Positions 1,452 to 29,095 are shown, counted from the stretch's first letter. The stretch: 38,954 nucleotides of DNA from an uncultured bacterium (GCA_937873535.1 CALMYA010000035.1:1-38954); one strand, 5' to 3'. Numbers and translations: made by a program. The notes: generated from the sequence alone by a model not told the origin.

Positions 1452-1488
1452 AGGAAAATAGGGAAGCCATCATTTAAATAAGCCATCA

Positions 1489-1515
1489 AAAAAGCCTTAT
1501 AAATAGGGCTTTTTT
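1489..1515 (+). terminator. Probable rpmF terminator
   Basis: AAAAAGCCTTAT...ATAGGGCTTTTTT: a short stem flanked by an A-tract and a T-tract. Confidence 0.5.
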
Positions 1516-1529
1516 GTAGTGAGGACTAC

Positions 1530-1688
1530 GTATAACTCAGGCGATAAAGAGATGGGGGCGGACAGAACATCCTGTGGGGAGACTTGCGAGCTGCAGCGAG
1601 CACGAGGAATTTTTCAGCAGAAAAATATCCGTGCTCCCCACAGGATGTTCTGGTAGCCTCTTGAATCTCTTTATCGCCTGAGTTATAC
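1530..1688. repeat. Family-A nested palindromic element, copy 1
   Basis: Outer perfect 23-bp inverted repeat (1530-1552 / 1666-1688) and inner perfect 18-bp inverted repeat (1563-1580 / 1635-1652). The enclosed core is near-identical to the reverse complement of 22022-22090. Confidence 0.75.
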
Positions 1689-1689
1689 T
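1661..1689 (+). promoter_or_regulatory. Candidate nusB promoter TTGAAT-N17-TATACT, embedded in the right arm of the family-A element
   Basis: TTGAAT at 1661-1666 and TATACT at 1684-1689, exactly 17 nt apart. The nusB ATG at 1709 is 19 nt downstream of the -10. Confidence 0.45.
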
Positions 1690-1708: not shown

Positions 1709-2629
1709 ATGGCAAACAGGCACTTATCCAGATCTATAGTCTTGCAGTCTTTATTCGAATGGGATTTCAGAAATCTCAGCGATGCTTCTATTGCCGATAT
1801 CCTCCAACGTAATGTAGACGAGTTCGCTCCTGGTATGGGCGATTTTTCATTTGTGAAGAATTTGGGTGACGGAATCCTCAAAAAAAGAAAAGACATAGAC
1901 ACCATAATTGAAAAGGCCGCGCCCGAGTGGCCTCTTGATAAAATTGCCATGGTAGACAGAAACGTTTTGCGCCTAGGCCTTTATGAGCTAATTTTCGGCG
2001 ACAGAAAAGAAGTGCCGGCGAAGGTGGCAATTAATGAAGCAATTGAATTGGCTAAGAGCTTTGGTGGTGATACATCTGGCAAATTCGTGAACGGCGTGCT
2101 CGGTGCTGTGTATAAAGAGATGGGCGAGCCGGGCAAAGACGAAACATCCCCGAGAAAAGACAAACAACATAAAAAAGAAGTGGCGTTTGAAGACATGCCT
2201 ATTAAAAAACTCGGCGGTGCGGTGGTATACACCATTCAAGATGGTGAAATATTTTTAGCACTCGTGCACGATGTTTTCGGCCACTGGACGCTCTCAAAAG
2301 GCAAGCTTGAAGCAGGTGAGAATGAACACGAAGGTACAATTCGTGAAATTAAAGAAGAAATGGGTGTTGATATTACAATTGAAGAAGAATTAGCACATAA
2401 CGAATATGTAGCTTCGCACCCAGAAGAAGGTAAGATGCGAAAGCAAGTTTCCTACTTTTTAGCTCGTACTGAATATACTCCCTTAACGCTCGGAACAAGT
2501 GGCGGCCTCGATGACGCGAAATGGTTTAATGTCAAAGATATACTCAATTTGAACTTTTATAACGACATTTTGCCAATTGTTACCAAGGCAATTCAAATCT
2601 TGATAAAAAAGGAAAGCGTGGTACTATAG
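1709..2629 (+). CDS. nusB: NusB antitermination factor fused to a C-terminal Nudix hydrolase domain (306 aa)
   Basis: The N-terminal ~140 aa are NusB-like (RSIVLQSLFEWDF..., VDRNVLRLGLYEL, INEAIELAK, FVNGVLG). The C-terminus carries a complete Nudix box GKLEAGENEHEGTIREIKEEMGV (Gx5Ex7REUxEExGU). No stop codon separates the two domains. Confidence 0.85.
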   Translation: MANRHLSRSIVLQSLFEWDFRNLSDASIADILQRNVDEFAPGMGDFSFVKNLGDGILKKRKDIDTIIEKAAPEWPLDKIAMVDRNVLRLGLYELIFGDRKEVPAKVAINEAIELAKSFGGDTSGKFVNGVLGAVYKEMGEPGKDETSPRKDKQHKKEVAFEDMPIKKLGGAVVYTIQDGEIFLALVHDVFGHWTLSKGKLEAGENEHEGTIREIKEEMGVDITIEEELAHNEYVASHPEEGKMRKQVSYFLARTEYTPLTLGTSGGLDDAKWFNVKDILNLNFYNDILPIVTKAIQILIKKESVVL

Positions 2630-2799: not shown

Positions 2800-3492
2800 A
2801 TGGATTTAAGCGTTTTCGAAGCCGCAGTCGGCGTCACATTTAAAGATAAAAACCTGCTCAAACAGGCGTTTATTCATCGTTCATATTTGAATGAGAACCG
2901 CTCTTCGAAACTTGAGCATAACGAGCGTATGGAATTTCTAGGTGACGCGGTACTTGAGCTTGTCATAACTGAATATTTGTATAAAAAATATCCTGAAAAA
3001 AATGAGGGTGACCTTACTGCGTATCGTTCATCGCTTGTTAACTCTGTAACACTTTCTCAGGTTGCCGAGAAAATAGGCATGAATTCATTTTTGCACTTAT
3101 CGAAGGGCGAAGCTAAAGACACCGGCCGTGCCCGCCAATTTATTCTTGCCAACACATTCGAGTCGTTCGTAGGTGCAGTATATTTAGACCAGGGCTACGA
3201 CGCTGCACAAGGGTTCATTTCACGCCAGCTTTTCGAACTTATTAACGACATTGTCGCCAACCGCGGCTTTATTGATTCTAAAAGCCTTTTTCAGGAAGAA
3301 GCTCAAGAGCGAGTTGGCATTACTCCGGCATACAAGCTTATGAAAGAAACCGGCCCCGACCACAACAAAATTTTCACTGTTGGTGTGTTTTTACGAGATG
3401 ATTTGGTTATAACAGGCGAAGGGAAGTCGAAGCAAGAAGCCGAGCAGGTTGCCGCCCAGAAGGCGCTTGAGAGCAAAAAGTGGACTGCATAA
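2800..3492 (+). CDS. rnc: Ribonuclease III
   Basis: NERMEFLGDAVLELV signature, plus a C-terminal dsRBD (GPDHNKIFTV...GEGKSKQEAEQVAA). Confidence 0.93.
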   Translation: MDLSVFEAAVGVTFKDKNLLKQAFIHRSYLNENRSSKLEHNERMEFLGDAVLELVITEYLYKKYPEKNEGDLTAYRSSLVNSVTLSQVAEKIGMNSFLHLSKGEAKDTGRARQFILANTFESFVGAVYLDQGYDAAQGFISRQLFELINDIVANRGFIDSKSLFQEEAQERVGITPAYKLMKETGPDHNKIFTVGVFLRDDLVITGEGKSKQEAEQVAAQKALESKKWTA

Positions 3493-20174: not shown

Positions 20175-21998
20175 ATGGTACAAAAAATCATCGAGTCTAC
20201 TTACTCTAGAAGCAAAGACTTCATGGCAATGTTCGTATACGCCGTGCGATTTTGCTATTTCAAGCCTGCTCGCAAGCTTTTTTGGGGGCTTATTGTTTTT
20301 GCTGCCGGTGTTGCCTCGCTTCCTCTTATAAGCGCTAAAGTTACCGGAGTAATAGTAGATACACTCACCGAAAAGCTTCAGCTTGGATCATTCGATACGG
20401 CCACGTTCAACTATGTGATTTTACTTACCGTGCTTTGGGCGTTTATCGATAACTTCGACAGCATTTTCAATACGGCAAAACGATATATTCGAACGCTTTG
20501 GACGTATCGAACTCAAATTGAATACGAGCTTAAAATTCTGGAGAAACGAATTGAAATAGACAGCGCTACTAGAGAGCAGGAATCATACAGAAACCTGGAA
20601 CAGCATGCTTTCGAAAAGGGCCCTTTTGTTGCTTGGAATTTGGCGCAAGGGTTTTTTAGGTATTGGGAAATATCTGTAGGATTTTTGGTGGCCGCTTTCA
20701 TTTTGGGTTTTAGTAATTTTTGGGTGCTTATTATTCTGGTAATGACGGCTCTGCCGCAGCTTGTCATCAATATAAAATTCGGCGAGAAAACATACGGTAT
20801 TTGGACGAGGAAGGGAGGCAAGGTCCAACGACTTTATTACTATTTCAGAAGCCTAATCGGTACAGAAACACTTGAATTAAACAACACAAGTAGAGTATTT
20901 TACGATAAAGTTGAAGGAATTCACCGCGACACTCAAGGAAGAATTCACGCCGAAGAAAAACGCCGTCTCGCATATACCTTTGCCAGCGACTTCATAAGTC
21001 TTCTGGGTGTTTTAGCATCTTTTTTGCTTATTGTGCTATCTGTACTTTCAGGTGCTGCAACCATTGGCGCCCTCATATTCCTGCGCGCATCAATCTACAA
21101 GTTTTCAAGCGCCTTGGAGCAGCTCATTGAGGAAGTAACGAACGACTACGAATATGTTTTGTACACCAAAGACCTCAAAGAGTGGTTTGCCATCAAACCG
21201 TTTGTAAGCGCTAAAACGGGCGACCCGTTTCCATTGCAAAAGGCCGCGCCCCTTATTGAGTTCAAGAATGTATCTTTTTCATACCCGGGTGAGAGAAATA
21301 AAGTGCTCAAAAATGTAAATCTTACAATTCAGAGCGGTGAGCGAATTGCTCTCATCGGCAACAACGGGGCAGGGAAGTCATCCCTCATTAAATTGTTGCT
21401 GAGAATTTACGACCCTACTGAAGGCGAAGTTACCGTTAACGGCAAAGATATAAAAACTATAAAAGTACGCGATTGGCGCGCGAATATTTCAGCATTATTG
21501 CAGGAATATCTGGTATTTAACATGAAAACAAAAGAGTCTATTTGGGCAAAAGTGAACCCCGACAAAGGCAGTAAAGCCGGCGCAATTGAGGCAGCCACAG
21601 CCAGCACCGCCTCAGACTTCATCGATAGATGGGACGACAAATATGAAGAGCAGATCGGCAAGGAATTCGGCGGCAAAGAGCTTTCTCGCGGCCAAAAACA
21701 GAAACTTTCGCTTGCCAGCACCCTGTACCGCGACACACCAATACTTATTCTCGACGAACCTACATCCGCCATCGACTCCGAATCTGAACTCTCAATTTTC
21801 AAAGCACTCGAGAAACTGCCAAAGTCGAAAACAATTGTATTCGTATCGCACGACATGGCCGTAGTAAGAAACGCCGATAGAATCATCGTGCTCAAAGACG
21901 GCGTATTAATAGAAGACGGCAGCCATGCTGAATTATTCGAAAAGAAGGGCTACTACAGCCGAATTTACAGCGAGCAGGTGGAGGCGATGACGAAGTAA
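20175..21998 (+). CDS. ABC exporter, fused permease/ATPase (MsbA-like half transporter)
   Basis: N-terminal 6-TM domain. Walker A GNNGAGKSS, signature LSRGQKQKLSLA, Walker B ILILDEPTSAID, H-loop VSHD. The start is uncertain (ATG 20175 overlaps a TATAAT). Confidence 0.88.
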   Translation: MVQKIIESTYSRSKDFMAMFVYAVRFCYFKPARKLFWGLIVFAAGVASLPLISAKVTGVIVDTLTEKLQLGSFDTATFNYVILLTVLWAFIDNFDSIFNTAKRYIRTLWTYRTQIEYELKILEKRIEIDSATREQESYRNLEQHAFEKGPFVAWNLAQGFFRYWEISVGFLVAAFILGFSNFWVLIILVMTALPQLVINIKFGEKTYGIWTRKGGKVQRLYYYFRSLIGTETLELNNTSRVFYDKVEGIHRDTQGRIHAEEKRRLAYTFASDFISLLGVLASFLLIVLSVLSGAATIGALIFLRASIYKFSSALEQLIEEVTNDYEYVLYTKDLKEWFAIKPFVSAKTGDPFPLQKAAPLIEFKNVSFSYPGERNKVLKNVNLTIQSGERIALIGNNGAGKSSLIKLLLRIYDPTEGEVTVNGKDIKTIKVRDWRANISALLQEYLVFNMKTKESIWAKVNPDKGSKAGAIEAATASTASDFIDRWDDKYEEQIGKEFGGKELSRGQKQKLSLASTLYRDTPILILDEPTSAIDSESELSIFKALEKLPKSKTIVFVSHDMAVVRNADRIIVLKDGVLIEDGSHAELFEKKGYYSRIYSEQVEAMTK

Positions 21999-22115
21999 AG
22001 GGTGCATTTCCTGCGTGTATTTGGGAGCACGGATATTTTCCTGCTGGAAAATTCCTCGTGCTTGCTCCGTCGAGTCTCGCAAGTCTCCCAAATACACGCA
22101 GGAAATGCACCCTTT
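21997..22115. repeat. Family-A palindromic element, copy 2 (core inverted relative to copy 1)
   Basis: Perfect 31-bp arms 21997-22027 / 22085-22115. The left arm starts within the ABC gene's TAA stop. The core matches the reverse complement of 1576-1640. Confidence 0.75.
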
Positions 22116-22156
22116 ATCTACGCCAGCATTTTTGATACACTAGCTTCTACAACTAT

Positions 22157-23464
22157 ATGAGCAATCTCAAAAACCGCGTTCACGCCAAAGACATCTCCCA
22201 ATATGCCGGGAAAGATATTTTAATTGCCGGTTTTGTGCACACTTTGCGCGTTCAGAGCAAGATCATCTTCCTTATTCTTCGTGATGCATCAGGAACAGTT
22301 CAAAACATCATTGAAGCTAAAGATGAAGCAACCTTTGAATTGGCAAAAGGGCTTTCAGCAGAATCTGTTGTTTCTATATTAGGAATCGTGAAGGAAGCAC
22401 CTCAGGCTCCGGGCGGTTTTGAAATTGCTGTATCTAAAATTACAGTTCTTTCGGTGGCAAACCCAGAACTGCCTATTCCTATAATTATAAAGGGTGGCGA
22501 TGAAGAGACAGAAGCCCCTACGCGTTTCGACTACCGCTGGATAGACTTGCGAAAGCCAGAAAAAGCTAAAATTTTCAAGGTATGGACGGAGCTCGAAAAA
22601 GGCTTCCGTACATATTGGGATGAAAACAAATTTGTGCAGCTTTACAGCCCGTCGTTTATGTCGACACCGTCAGAAACTGGTGCTGAAGTCTTTGAAGTAA
22701 AATATTTCGACAAAAAAGCTTATCTCGCACAGTCACCACAGTTTTATAAGCAGATGGCCATTGCCTCCGGTTATGAGCGAGTGTTCATGGCTGGGCCGGT
22801 TTTTCGCGCAGAAGAATCGTTTACGGCGCGCCACCTTACAGAATTCAGCGGCTGGGACTTTGAAATAGGCTATATAGATGACCATCATGACATTATGAAC
22901 GCAGAAGAGGGGATGCTTGTTTCGGGATTCAAAGCGGTAGCTGAAGCTTTTCCTGATATGAATGTGCAAATTCCTACTATACCGTTCCCGCGCATCACAA
23001 TGCTTAAAGCTAAAGAAATTCTCAAGAAAGAAGGTGTACCAAGCGGCGAACCGCACGATCTTTCACCAGAAGAAGAGCGTGCCATGTGTGAATATGTAAA
23101 AAAAGAGTACGACCATGACTTCGTATTTATAACCGACTATCACAAGTCAAAGAGCGCTTTCTACCACATGCGCCACCCAGAAAACCCCGACTACTCACGT
23201 CGTGCTGACCTTTTGTATAGAGGAATTGAAGTTACGACGCTTGCCCAGCGCGAACACCGAATTGATATTCTTGAGAAACAAGCTATTGAAAAAGGCATGA
23301 GCCTTGATGCTTTGAAAGACTACTTGAACTTCTTCCGTTGGGGCTGCCCTCCGCACGGTGGCGCCGGCATTGGCCCGGGCAGGCTTATTATGAAGCTTCT
23401 CGACCTGCCGAACGTGCGCGAGGCAACATATGTGCCGCGCGACGTGAAGAGGCTGAATCCTTAA
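22157..23464 (+). CDS. aspS: Aspartate--tRNA ligase, archaeal/eukaryal type (class IIb, 435 aa)
   Basis: OB-fold N-terminus (FLILRDASGTVQNI), motif 2 FRAEESFTARHLTEF, motif 3 HGGAGIGPGRLIM. The ELPIPI...RWIDLRKP pattern favours AspRS over AsnRS. Confidence 0.82.
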   Translation: MSNLKNRVHAKDISQYAGKDILIAGFVHTLRVQSKIIFLILRDASGTVQNIIEAKDEATFELAKGLSAESVVSILGIVKEAPQAPGGFEIAVSKITVLSVANPELPIPIIIKGGDEETEAPTRFDYRWIDLRKPEKAKIFKVWTELEKGFRTYWDENKFVQLYSPSFMSTPSETGAEVFEVKYFDKKAYLAQSPQFYKQMAIASGYERVFMAGPVFRAEESFTARHLTEFSGWDFEIGYIDDHHDIMNAEEGMLVSGFKAVAEAFPDMNVQIPTIPFPRITMLKAKEILKKEGVPSGEPHDLSPEEERAMCEYVKKEYDHDFVFITDYHKSKSAFYHMRHPENPDYSRRADLLYRGIEVTTLAQREHRIDILEKQAIEKGMSLDALKDYLNFFRWGCPPHGGAGIGPGRLIMKLLDLPNVREATYVPRDVKRLNP

Positions 23465-27915: not shown

Positions 27916-29025
27916 ATGCACGTAATGACTCCAAAAAAAGTAGACCGTCCGTTCCTCATACTCACATCAATTCTTGTTGTTTTGGGCTATTTAATTTTTT
28001 CTTCTGCAGCGCTAGGGCTTGTCACCAGAAATGCAGGGCTTTTTCAGGCGGTTACGTTCAACCAGGTAGTGCTCGGGCTTATATGCGGCAGCATCGCCGC
28101 GTTTATTTTTTCAAAAATTAGCTACCAGCATTGGCGAACATACGCATTTTATATTTTTCTTTTTTCAGCCCTGATGATGGTTCTTGTTTTCATCCCGCAT
28201 GTCGGCCAATTTCATGGCGGCGCACGGCGCTGGATAGGCATAGGCTCATTCAGCTTTCAGCCGGCCGAATTTTTTAAGATTGGTTTTGTGATGTATGCCG
28301 CAGCATGGTATGCGTCTGTAAAGGCCAAAGCTGCAACCTTGAAATTCGGCGCAGCGCCTTTTCTTGTTCTTATTGCCATTGCCGGTGCCCTCATCTTGGC
28401 GCAGCCTGATACCGACACTTTTCTAGTTATTGCCGTAGCCGGCCTGGCCATATATTTTGCCGCGGGCGCTCGTTGGCGAGACATTCTCATAATGGGTTTG
28501 CTTGGCGCTGTTTTAATTACAGGAATTGCCATGACTCGGCCCTACGTGATGCAGCGCATTCAAACATTCGTTGACCCTTCAAAAGACCCTACAGGCAGCG
28601 GCTATCAAATTCAGCAGTCGCTCATCGCCATCGGTTCAGGCGGCTTATTCGGCCGCGGCTTCGGGCAGAGCATTCAAAAATTTAATTATCTTCCCGAACC
28701 GATAGGGGATTCAATATTCGCTGTAGCCTCAGAAGAATTTGGTTTTCTAGGCTCGGTTTCCATTATTCTTTTATATATTTTGTTCGCATTCCAAGGCTTC
28801 CGCATCGCCCTTCGCGCCCCCGACGCCTTCGGCACATATTTGGTTCTCGGCTTGGTCATTCTTATTACAGTGCAATCATTTTTAAATATTTCAGCCATGC
28901 TCGGTATTACGCCACTTTCAGGTACGCCGTTATTATTCATTTCGCATGGAGGAACCGCGCTGTTCTTTGCGCTGTCGTCGGTTGGAATTATTTTAAATGT
29001 TTCGAGGTATCAGAAGAAGAAATAA
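27916..29025 (+). CDS. ftsW: SEDS-family peptidoglycan glycosyltransferase FtsW/RodA
   Basis: FQPAEFFKI, QPDTDT, GYQIQQSLIAIGSGGLFGRGFGQS, LPEPIGDSIFA. The start may be ATG 27925 (7 nt after TATAAT). Confidence 0.9.
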   Translation: MHVMTPKKVDRPFLILTSILVVLGYLIFSSAALGLVTRNAGLFQAVTFNQVVLGLICGSIAAFIFSKISYQHWRTYAFYIFLFSALMMVLVFIPHVGQFHGGARRWIGIGSFSFQPAEFFKIGFVMYAAAWYASVKAKAATLKFGAAPFLVLIAIAGALILAQPDTDTFLVIAVAGLAIYFAAGARWRDILIMGLLGAVLITGIAMTRPYVMQRIQTFVDPSKDPTGSGYQIQQSLIAIGSGGLFGRGFGQSIQKFNYLPEPIGDSIFAVASEEFGFLGSVSIILLYILFAFQGFRIALRAPDAFGTYLVLGLVILITVQSFLNISAMLGITPLSGTPLLFISHGGTALFFALSSVGIILNVSRYQKKK

Positions 29026-29095
29026 CAAATACCCCATATTCATGAGCATGCGTATCTGCGATATGCTCATGAATATGGGGTATTTGTTATTTCTT
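29017..29095. repeat. Family-B palindromic element (33-bp perfect stem, 13-nt loop), doubling as the ftsW 3' hairpin
   Basis: Arms 29017-29049 / 29063-29095 are perfectly complementary. The loop is GCGTATCTGCGAT. The left arm contains the last ftsW codons and the TAA stop (29023-29025). Confidence 0.75.

Follow-up and report, generated by a model that had tools for sequence, protein, structure and literature searches.

What is the long nested palindrome that separates rpmF from nusB in the genome of an uncultured bacterium, and how did its arms become perfectly self-complementary? The question is raised by positions 1530-1688 of a DNA stretch of 38,954 nucleotides (nt) (GCA_937873535.1, CALMYA010000035.1:1-38954), which was analysed at its full length and is referred to below as the window. 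A first-pass annotation of this DNA had proposed a repeat family with a conserved centre and copy-specific stem arms, and this was borne out. The palindrome (copy 1) and a second locus in the window (copy 2) belong to a family of structured interspersed hairpin elements in Paceibacteria that is absent from Rfam, an identity that is well supported. The fuller reading that we prefer, and hold with about even confidence, is that the two copies are members of an interspersed, ~110-nt element of the Patescibacteria (Candidate Phyla Radiation, CPR), which folds on one strand, is both mobile and maintained, and has its stems lengthened by template switching.

Copy 1 consists of a family-typical unit, i.e. 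a stem (P1) carrying a three-way-junction core with two further helices (P2 and P3), enclosed by an additional pair of outer arms. Its parts, and those of copy 2, are:

1530-1553 (+): outer left arm, 24 nt, perfect inverted copy of 1665-1688, beyond the family-typical unit length
1554-1661 (+): family-typical unit (108 nt) of copy 1, in which the P1 stem carries the three-way-junction core
1554-1581 (+): P1 5' strand, with 1554-1559 paired (two G.U), a 3-nt loop at 1560-1562 and a perfect block of 19 nt at 1563-1581
1582-1634 (+): conserved core, delimited by the alignment, pair counts and model alignment, with the P3 register taken from divergent copies
1582-1589 (+): junction strand ACUUGCGA
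1590-1597 (+): P2, shortened in copy 1 (GC-UGCA-GC versus the consensus GNNN-GAC(N)G-NNNC)
1598-1600 (+): junction GAG
1601-1633 (+): P3, comprising a bulged GA, a stem rich in U and A, and the loop AGCA (1616-1619)
1634 (+): C1634, the base closing P1
1634-1661 (+): P1 3' strand, with a perfect block of 19 nt at 1634-1652, a loop at 1653-1655, and 1656-1661 paired with 1554-1559
1661-1689 (+): nusB promoter-like site, TTGAAT (1661-1666), N17, TATACT (1684-1689), overlapping the outer right arm
1665-1688 (+): outer right arm, 24 nt, corresponding to the promoter spacer and most of the -10
21996-22116 (-): copy 2, with the core at 22027-22084 and perfect P1 arms of 32 bp at 21996-22027 and 22085-22116

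The nesting and perfection of the inverted repeats described in the first-pass annotation were confirmed, but their lengths had to be corrected, from 23 to 24 bp for the outer repeat and from 18 to 19 bp for the inner one. The statement that the arms lack G-U pairs and mismatches holds only inside these perfect blocks: between them lies an imperfect 6-bp stem, GGGGGC (1554-1559) paired with GCCTCT (1656-1661), two of the pairs being G.U, and internal loops of 3 nt are present at 1560-62, 1653-55 and 1662-64. The whole stem of copy 1 comprises 49 pairs, about twice the family norm, and its predicted fold (-105.3 kcal/mol, z = -14.5) was equalled by 0/200 shuffles. The unit scored 86.4 bits (E = 4e-23) with the covariance model described below. 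Copy 2 folds at -78.5 kcal/mol (z = -12.5; 0/200 shuffles equal it), and its core recurs, as had been claimed, in reverse complement on arms that are unrelated in sequence to those of copy 1. These arms begin at the TAA stop codon of the upstream ABC-transporter gene, a weaker and decayed complementarity runs ~11 nt further into the coding end of that gene, and the copy is antisense to both flanking genes (ABC transporter and aspS). Zero-mismatch occurrences of the core 14-mers GGGAGACTTGCGAG and GCACGAGGAATTTT are confined in the window to copies 1 and 2, and the covariance model also detected exactly two copies there, with filters off included.

Palindromes of this length invite the suspicion of an assembly artefact, as short-read assemblers break or mis-join at hairpins, and short-read Logan contigs (L002, L004 and L102) do stop inside the P3 hairpin or the stem of both copies (at window positions 1608, 1611 and 22087). 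However, the sequence at 1487-1720 is identical in two further assemblies from other samples, that at 21981-22160 is identical in one, and over 100 homologous copies come from unrelated projects that produced metagenome-assembled genomes (MAGs). The palindromes are real sequence, and an artefact, to which we assign a next to negligible probability, is excluded.

The presence of further copies, whose absence the first-pass annotation had named as counting against its proposal, was established in two ways. A loose core pattern (ACTTGC-N8-30-GCACGAGGAA-N10-30-ATCCGTGC), run on one genome per GTDB species, retrieved 91 loci in ~50 species-level MAGs, all but two of them labelled as Patescibacteria lineages (Paceibacterota, Nomurabacteria, Taylorbacteria, Minisyncoccia and 'Saccharibacteria'-labelled bins); one of the two exceptions (L077) was rejected as a chance match with no stem. 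A covariance model built from 92 copies and searched against 653 kb of fetched sequence found 112 copies, ~20 of them divergent, with up to three copies within 2-6 kb. Further members occur on related metagenome contigs from the window's own community, and a scan of viral contigs returned no family copy. Two close pairs were recorded within 200 nt, one in tandem (L017, 1534-1610 and 1655-1729) and one back to back (L076, 5231-5306 and 5338-5414). In a relative of the window's organism (L098/L099, 15235-15305), a degenerate copy (46 bits) separates smc from the RNase R gene; the corresponding window site has no copy.

The family was also correctly judged unfamiliar, as it is not REP, attC or retron by the defining features of these and has no Rfam match. 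At gathering thresholds, Rfam 15 found only two tRNAs in the window; at E-values up to 10, all hits for copy 1 were terminator-like noise beyond the limits of the element, and a consensus-like copy gave generic microRNA-hairpin matches only, far below threshold. No published account of the element came up when the literature was searched by topic and with the core sequence. TIGR arrays, which surfaced in these searches, are tandem arrays with Tas genes and hence unrelated.

Across 86 distinct copies, the unit has a median length of 111 nt (interquartile range 102-117) and is built of a 57-nt three-way-junction core on a P1 stem of ~27 bp (median 26 pairs). The junction strands, ACUUGCGA and GAG, hardly vary; P2, short and rich in G+C, forms a hairpin whose loop reads GAC(N)G, and P3 comprises a GA bulge and an A/U-rich terminal hairpin with an AGCA loop; both P2 and P3 accept insertions or extra hairpins. 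Covariation is pronounced: 96.1% of the alignment cells are paired (versus 77% after shuffling and 32-61% with the partners slid), double-change cells number 478 (versus 130 in shuffles), and compensatory changes are numerous in P1, in the inner part of the P2 stem and in the distal part of P3 alike. A first register for P2 and P3 (U14-A48, G15-C47) was dropped because C47:G80 and G53:C76 covary in divergent copies, where exchanges of C:G for U:A and of G:C for C:G are seen in P3. The register from these copies (C47-G80, A48-U79, C49-G78, GA bulge, G52-C77, G53-C76) indicates that P3 stacks on P1. Family-wide, P1 contains G.U pairs, tandem G.A mismatches and compensatory changes, orthologous sites included.

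The two strands of the element are not equivalent. When P1 is read on the strand carrying ACTTGC, G.U pairs outnumber A.C mismatches by 65 to 16. On the same strand the RNA minimum free energy is lower in 87/92 copies (p = 3e-16), and the arms taken alone are more stable as RNA in 77 copies, versus 12 for the other strand. Given established mutation asymmetries, strand-asymmetric deamination would push the other way, and we therefore take the asymmetry to reflect selection for the ACTTGC strand to fold as a single strand. Thus, the ACTTGC strand is selected to fold and the working form of the element is single-stranded. Its G.U pairs and tandem G.A mismatches, together with the bulges and with peripheral helices that can be extended, lead us to infer, as the simplest reading, that the active form is RNA.

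This asymmetry bears directly on the idea that the element is a hairpin in the 3' untranslated region of sense mRNA, i.e. the reverse complement of the strand discussed above, ending or stabilising the upstream transcript as REP, ERIC and Correia repeats do. Such a role would suit the position of most copies, in which the upstream gene must read into the element with its stop codon touching the stem, and the reverse-complement hairpin is still very stable. Nevertheless, both the pair counts and the energies place selection on the other strand, deamination on the non-transcribed strand would be expected to push in the opposite direction, no U-tract follows the stem, and a stabiliser needs no conserved asymmetric three-way junction. 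We consider this explanation very improbable.

How the arms came to be perfect is a separate matter. Family-wide, the perfect runs next to the core are mostly short (<10 bp in 60/96), with a tail to 25-32 bp in several genomes. In the window's community, both the family described here (family A) and an unrelated family B have unique, perfect arms of 19-33 bp; this points to the organisms, more than to any single element, as the source of long perfect arms. In copy 1, the nusB promoter that had been predicted in the right arm (TTGAAT-N17-TATACT at 1661-1689) was found again, and in a relative without the element (L096), TTGAAC-N16-TATACT-TAAT stands equally far from the nusB ATG (at 1709 in the window). 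Moreover, the last base of the family-typical unit in copy 1, 1661, is also the first base of the -35. A native promoter in L096 and a unit ending at the -35 together indicate that the left outer arm (1530-1553) is a derived inverted copy, and the right outer arm (1665-1688), which is native nusB promoter DNA, would have served as the template of an inverted duplication. Similarly, copy 2 and nine other copies pair 8-16 nt into the end of a neighbouring open reading frame.

Family B provides a second case. Its copies in the window are:

10368-10486: family B hairpin, left arm region 10368-10420, right arm region 10434-10486, conserved apex GCATATCGCAGATACGCATGC
29017-29095: second family B copy

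Nineteen distinct copies of this family were seen in the window and in related metagenome contigs (L103-L122; OFQY01, OFRM01 and OFRG01). In most of them the arms are unique and perfect over 19-33 bp; with A prevailing on their 5' side and T on their 3' side, these arms have a terminator-like look. The right arm of the hairpin at 10368-10486 spans the last seven codons and the stop codon of an HSP20 gene (KLRIKSI*). The C-termini of HSP20 in two relatives (L098 and L100) are KLRIKSI* and KLRVKSV*, i.e. nearly identical, and the codons in the window are therefore native. As the left arm holds a diverged inverted copy of these end codons, the HSP20 arm directly shows that the end of a gene has been duplicated in inverted form.

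It is documented that hairpin arms can be created, perfected and expanded by template switching (PMC8794818, PMC13100816, PMC5453318). In the mechanism that we propose, a nascent strand would fold back at the hairpin and copy its own flank (intrastrand template switching). Such fold-back copying would yield perfect, locus-specific arms, so that the stems would be re-made and lengthened at the DNA level in this organism; in copy 1, the spacer and -10 of the nusB promoter would have been copied in inverted orientation and added as the outer 24-bp arm. The anatomy of the copies speaks for template switching that extends the stem at the DNA level, on top of a constraint of the RNA type. The DNA-level generation of arms suggested in the first-pass annotation is supported for the outer arm, which matches native promoter DNA in L096, and for other arms that lie over coding ends, but an RNA-type constraint on P1 is present as well.

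Compensatory evolution at the RNA level alone, with no DNA-level duplication, would explain the covariation of P1 at orthologous sites and the G.U pairs and mismatches that are common family-wide. It accounts poorly for perfect, unrelated arms of 24-33 bp beside near-identical cores in one genome and in two unrelated families, for arms that match constrained native coding ends and a promoter over 8-25 nt, and for a copy 1 stem of about twice the usual length; there seems to be little chance that it suffices.

Another alternative is that the core is a small mobile or convertible module landing in the loops of pre-existing hairpins, e.g. long terminator stems past stop codons, the arms being older than the core. 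The location of copies directly past stop codons and tRNA 3' ends agrees with this, as do terminator-like arms in the window's community (AAAAACAAAA...TTTTGTTTTT in L104 and L117), the A-rich and T-rich sides of the family B arms, and a slight enrichment of A/T tracts at the arm bases. On the other hand, T-tracts after P1 are no commoner than in controls (19/91 copies versus 11-20), a median of 26 P1 pairs far exceeds ordinary terminator stems, promoter DNA makes up the outer right arm of copy 1 and has no hairpin partner in L096, and the G.U bias favours the strand that a terminator of the adjacent gene would not use. The inner P1 is common to copies in several genomes and hence travels with the core. 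Insertion of the core into hairpin loops, one of the examples given in the first-pass annotation, is for this reason not supported as a general rule: the inner P1 belongs to the family unit. We regard the alternative as improbable. A more far-reaching reading would make the three-way junction a new class of functional RNA of CPR bacteria (protein-recruiting or self-processing, ribozyme-like), set on a hairpin that builds its stem from the target by hairpin-primed template switching after arrival, the arms being made locally rather than carried. This may be so, but we think it rather unlikely.

Returning to the reading of an element that is both mobile and maintained, the distribution of copies speaks for each of these properties. 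Empty sites, sought in sister genomes as the first-pass annotation advised, were found: in relatives with 81-82% NusB identity, the rpmF-nusB spacer has no element and is a plain sequence of 86-96 nt. Look-ups of aspS for strain variants returned the same strain only, and a look-up of the L32 protein returned no record. In some genomes (CAZAOU and DATEUR) the arms are common to several copies, whereas in the window and in JBAXUB they are unrelated between copies. Direct repeats of at least 10 nt flank 9.3% of copies, five times the 1.8% obtained for shuffled flank pairs. In one lineage they measure 9-15 nt and border a TGTGGA-like, AT-rich target. Those in the flanks of L018, L019, L023, L041, L052, L091 and L035 vary over the same range of lengths and lie 0-7 nt off the stem base, and their left-hand copies have TGTGGA or TGTGTA and an AT-rich motif; variable-length direct repeats are unusual for a DDE transposase. 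Neither window copy has a flanking direct repeat. The description of the element as the opposite of a miniature inverted-repeat transposable element (MITE) is too strong, as in some genomes arms are common to copies with flanking direct repeats. Two sites testify to retention. Four genomes carry the element at rpmE-prfA, and five carry it between YqeY and an exonuclease gene (YqeY|exonuclease), a site that lies between divergent leaderless promoters; at both, the arms are homologous and compensated. The cores at orthologous sites are almost unchanged though the flanking genes are just 65-79% identical, which, together with the compensated arms, is unlike a decaying selfish insert. A conserved RNA gene was considered beside the rpmE-prfA copy and rejected, as the conserved flank is rpmE itself. 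The family is thus partly like a non-autonomous mobile repeat (multi-copy, with empty sites, shared arms and direct repeats) and partly like a maintained functional RNA (the same sites in 4-5 species, with compensatory changes in P1).

The main rival explanation holds that the element is selfish and mobilised as single-stranded DNA, in the manner of REP/RAYT or IS200/IS605-PATE systems, with the junction acting as a DNA hairpin for an HUH/Y1 enzyme, the orientation bias (see below) arising from strand-specific integration at replication forks, and no host function. Multiple intergenic copies at gene ends, the shared arms and direct repeats of some lineages, and the empty sites in relatives all agree with it. 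So do the lack of promoter and terminator and the copies in untranscribed spacers; the orientation bias is already seen in copies with long perfect arms, and G.T is the best-tolerated mismatch in DNA hairpins too. It is opposed by the near-unchanged cores at orthologous sites, where selfish decay predicts otherwise, and by the neighbourhoods of 95 copies, in which no transposase-like gene is enriched within 2.5 kb. The two window copies are oppositely oriented among same-strand genes, and transposition of the IS200/IS605 type leaves no target duplication. Furthermore, if highly expressed neighbours are co-oriented with replication, the folding strand would be the leading-strand template, which is the least exposed as single-stranded DNA; the GC skew of the window was too noisy for the direction of replication to be read. 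We consider this rival unlikely on the whole, while giving it real weight.

Genomic context offers a hint of function. The element is intergenic, and where its neighbours are co-directional it is antisense to them (-,-) in 32 copies and sense (+,+) in 6; among copies with long perfect arms the numbers are 10 versus 1. The 3' arm of P1 ends at most 10 nt from the stop codon of the antisense gene, or overlaps it, in 28/43 copies that have a stop codon within 150 nt, and it abuts tRNA 3' ends likewise. The neighbours are housekeeping genes (L25, L31, EF-G, PrfA, PNPase, SecA, GyrB, YqeY and similar). Neither a transposase nor a reverse transcriptase was found near the copies, and no protein family was enriched in the same 2.5-kb neighbourhoods (protein clustering and Pfam). 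We propose tentatively that the element is read by transcription running backwards from the next promoter region towards the 3' end of the upstream gene. Its RNA would form an RNase III-type rod of ~27 bp capped by a protein-binding junction, and rod and junction together would limit antisense RNA over the upstream gene. As substrates for RNase III, which needs at least ~20 bp of double-stranded RNA, the stems are long enough (median 26 pairs; 49 in copy 1), and the genome encodes rnc. The closeness of rnc (window 2800-3492) to copy 1, to which the first-pass annotation had drawn attention, is not evidence for processing by RNase III, because the copies are dispersed genome-wide. That the element confines antisense RNA over the upstream gene is a guess, and on the doubtful side.

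Two sense-oriented copies, a rare arrangement, might be co-transcribed with tRNAs: a divergent one between two same-strand tRNA genes (L087, 7723-7806) and one 27 nt upstream of tRNA-Phe on the same strand (L084, 7070-7145). Downstream of the element in L020, L053, L061, L072 and L080, a conserved TGnTAAAAT -10 box precedes the ATG of an RNase T/ExoX-like gene by 6-7 nt, and YqeY is similarly arranged; this suggests that leaderless mRNAs are common in these organisms.

Several observations weigh against the preferred reading of a mobile and maintained, RNA-forming element with template-switched stems. The invariance of the core is in part a matter of ascertainment, since 24 positions were fixed by the search pattern and divergent subfamilies exist; positions outside the pattern (G10, G17, A18, A45 and loop letters) are, however, 90-100% conserved too. 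Template switching in palindromes can itself yield 'compensatory' changes, which makes covariation weaker evidence of selection here than in ordinary RNAs, and for this reason we lean on the strand asymmetry instead. Homology between the -35 of the window and that of L096 is judged from position only. No orthologous empty site was near enough to give the pre-insertion sequence, the closest relatives having 81-89% NusB identity and intergenic DNA that is too diverged. No partner protein was found among the clustered neighbours of the copies, and no promoter at a fixed distance emerged from TANNNT histograms or from position profiles anchored on the core and stem base, which showed nothing beyond composition. 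No U-tract follows P1 (T runs of at least 4 in 15/92 copies). Finally, some conserved copies, including those at the YqeY|exonuclease site and copy 1, lie in spacers that neither neighbour transcribes; a DNA-level role or a tolerated element would fit these better than an antisense-RNA role.

The remainder of the rpmF-nusB spacer shows how copy 1 is placed:

1487-1516 (+): rpmF intrinsic terminator, an inverted repeat and a T run (AAAAAAGCCTTAT-AA-ATAGGGCTTTTTT), outside the element

An equivalent terminator occupies the same place in a relative (L100). Copy 1 lies between this terminator and the nusB promoter. A small palindrome (GTAGT-GAGG-ACTAC, window 1516-1529) is situated between the terminator and the outer left arm. 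Downstream, NusB (window 1709-2629) is fused to a C-terminal NUDIX hydrolase domain, and the fusion is kept in thousands of Patescibacteria homologues.

Patescibacteria have tiny genomes in which very few regulatory RNAs or repeat families are known, and the element fills a sizeable share of the intergenic spacers beside their housekeeping genes. Its antisense placement tight on gene 3' ends points either to unrecognised transcription or RNA handling at gene boundaries or to a strand-specific insertion mechanism. Arms copied from native promoter and coding DNA bear on how long RNA stems arise and stay paired, and there is a modest chance that the stem-from-target behaviour represents a new insertion mechanism or that the junction represents a new functional RNA class. 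In practical terms, these hairpins fragment short-read assemblies of CPR organisms.

The element was also compared with known systems. An intrinsic terminator was rejected, as there is no U-tract excess and copy 1 lies past a separate canonical terminator. A retron non-coding RNA was rejected too: no reverse transcriptase gene lies next to either window copy, and none is enriched near the other copies. As for a MITE, no enriched neighbour protein family that could represent an autonomous partner or transposase was found, and the neighbours are housekeeping genes. Integron attC sites resemble the element in that the folded strand is complementary to the coding strand, stop codons are abutted and structure prevails over sequence, but they have conserved outer R''/R' boxes (RYYYAAC / GTTRRRY), a variable middle, an integrase and cassette arrays, whereas the CPR element has unconserved ends, housekeeping flanks and no arrays. 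This candidate was dropped, as the outer ends differ (GTATAAC/GTTATAC versus TAAAGGG/CCCTTTA) and the flanks are rpmF/nusB and ABC/aspS. With covariation-defined RNA motifs (three-way-junction aptamers, hammerhead) the element shares a near-invariant junction, extensible peripheral helices, and G.U and tandem G.A pairs; it departs from them in a P1 of ~27 bp, which is too long for a switch, in having no consistent position in 5' untranslated regions and in reaching dozens of copies per genome. The hammerhead itself was discarded because the junction sequences, as read, differ from its core and no Rfam ribozyme model matched. Template-switch (quasi-palindrome) mutation explains perfect arms, inverted copies of adjacent native sequence and one-step compensatory changes, but it is a mutational process, not an element family, and leaves the conserved core and its spread unexplained.

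Closer parallels are found among small interspersed repeats. Like the element, REP/BIME sequences are extragenic, lie at gene 3' ends, are recognised as a folded single strand, show compensatory stem changes and have been exapted by their hosts. However, REP sequences form simple hairpins of 20-40 nt, carry a GTAG-type tetranucleotide on the 5' side and co-evolve with a RAYT gene in each species, whereas the CPR element lacks such a motif and forms a three-way junction of ~111 nt, and no Y1/RAYT transposase was seen near the 95 copies. The Correia (CREE/NEMIS) elements of Neisseria, ERIC, RUP, BOX and SMAG are small palindromic repeats (PMC2649163, PMC2229807, PMC10969869, PMC3049150). The CPR element is like these Correia-type repeats in forming interspersed intergenic long hairpins of 100-150 nt beside gene ends, which may overlap or create promoters, are non-autonomous and vary in presence between strains. 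Their stems are RNase III substrates; that of the CPR element is long enough, and its cleavage is predicted only. In Correia-type repeats it is the terminal inverted repeats that are conserved, and they are species- or genus-specific, whereas in the CPR element the apex is conserved over ~50 species and the stem varies. Overall, the element appears to work most like the small palindromic repeats Correia/NEMIS, ERIC, RUP and REP, yet it falls outside these families, with the apex and not the ends conserved, no GTAG-type motif, flanking repeats of variable rather than fixed length, and conservation over many species. From Correia-type repeats it differs further in its three covarying helices, one selected strand, an antisense orientation bias and stems that can derive from local flanking DNA.

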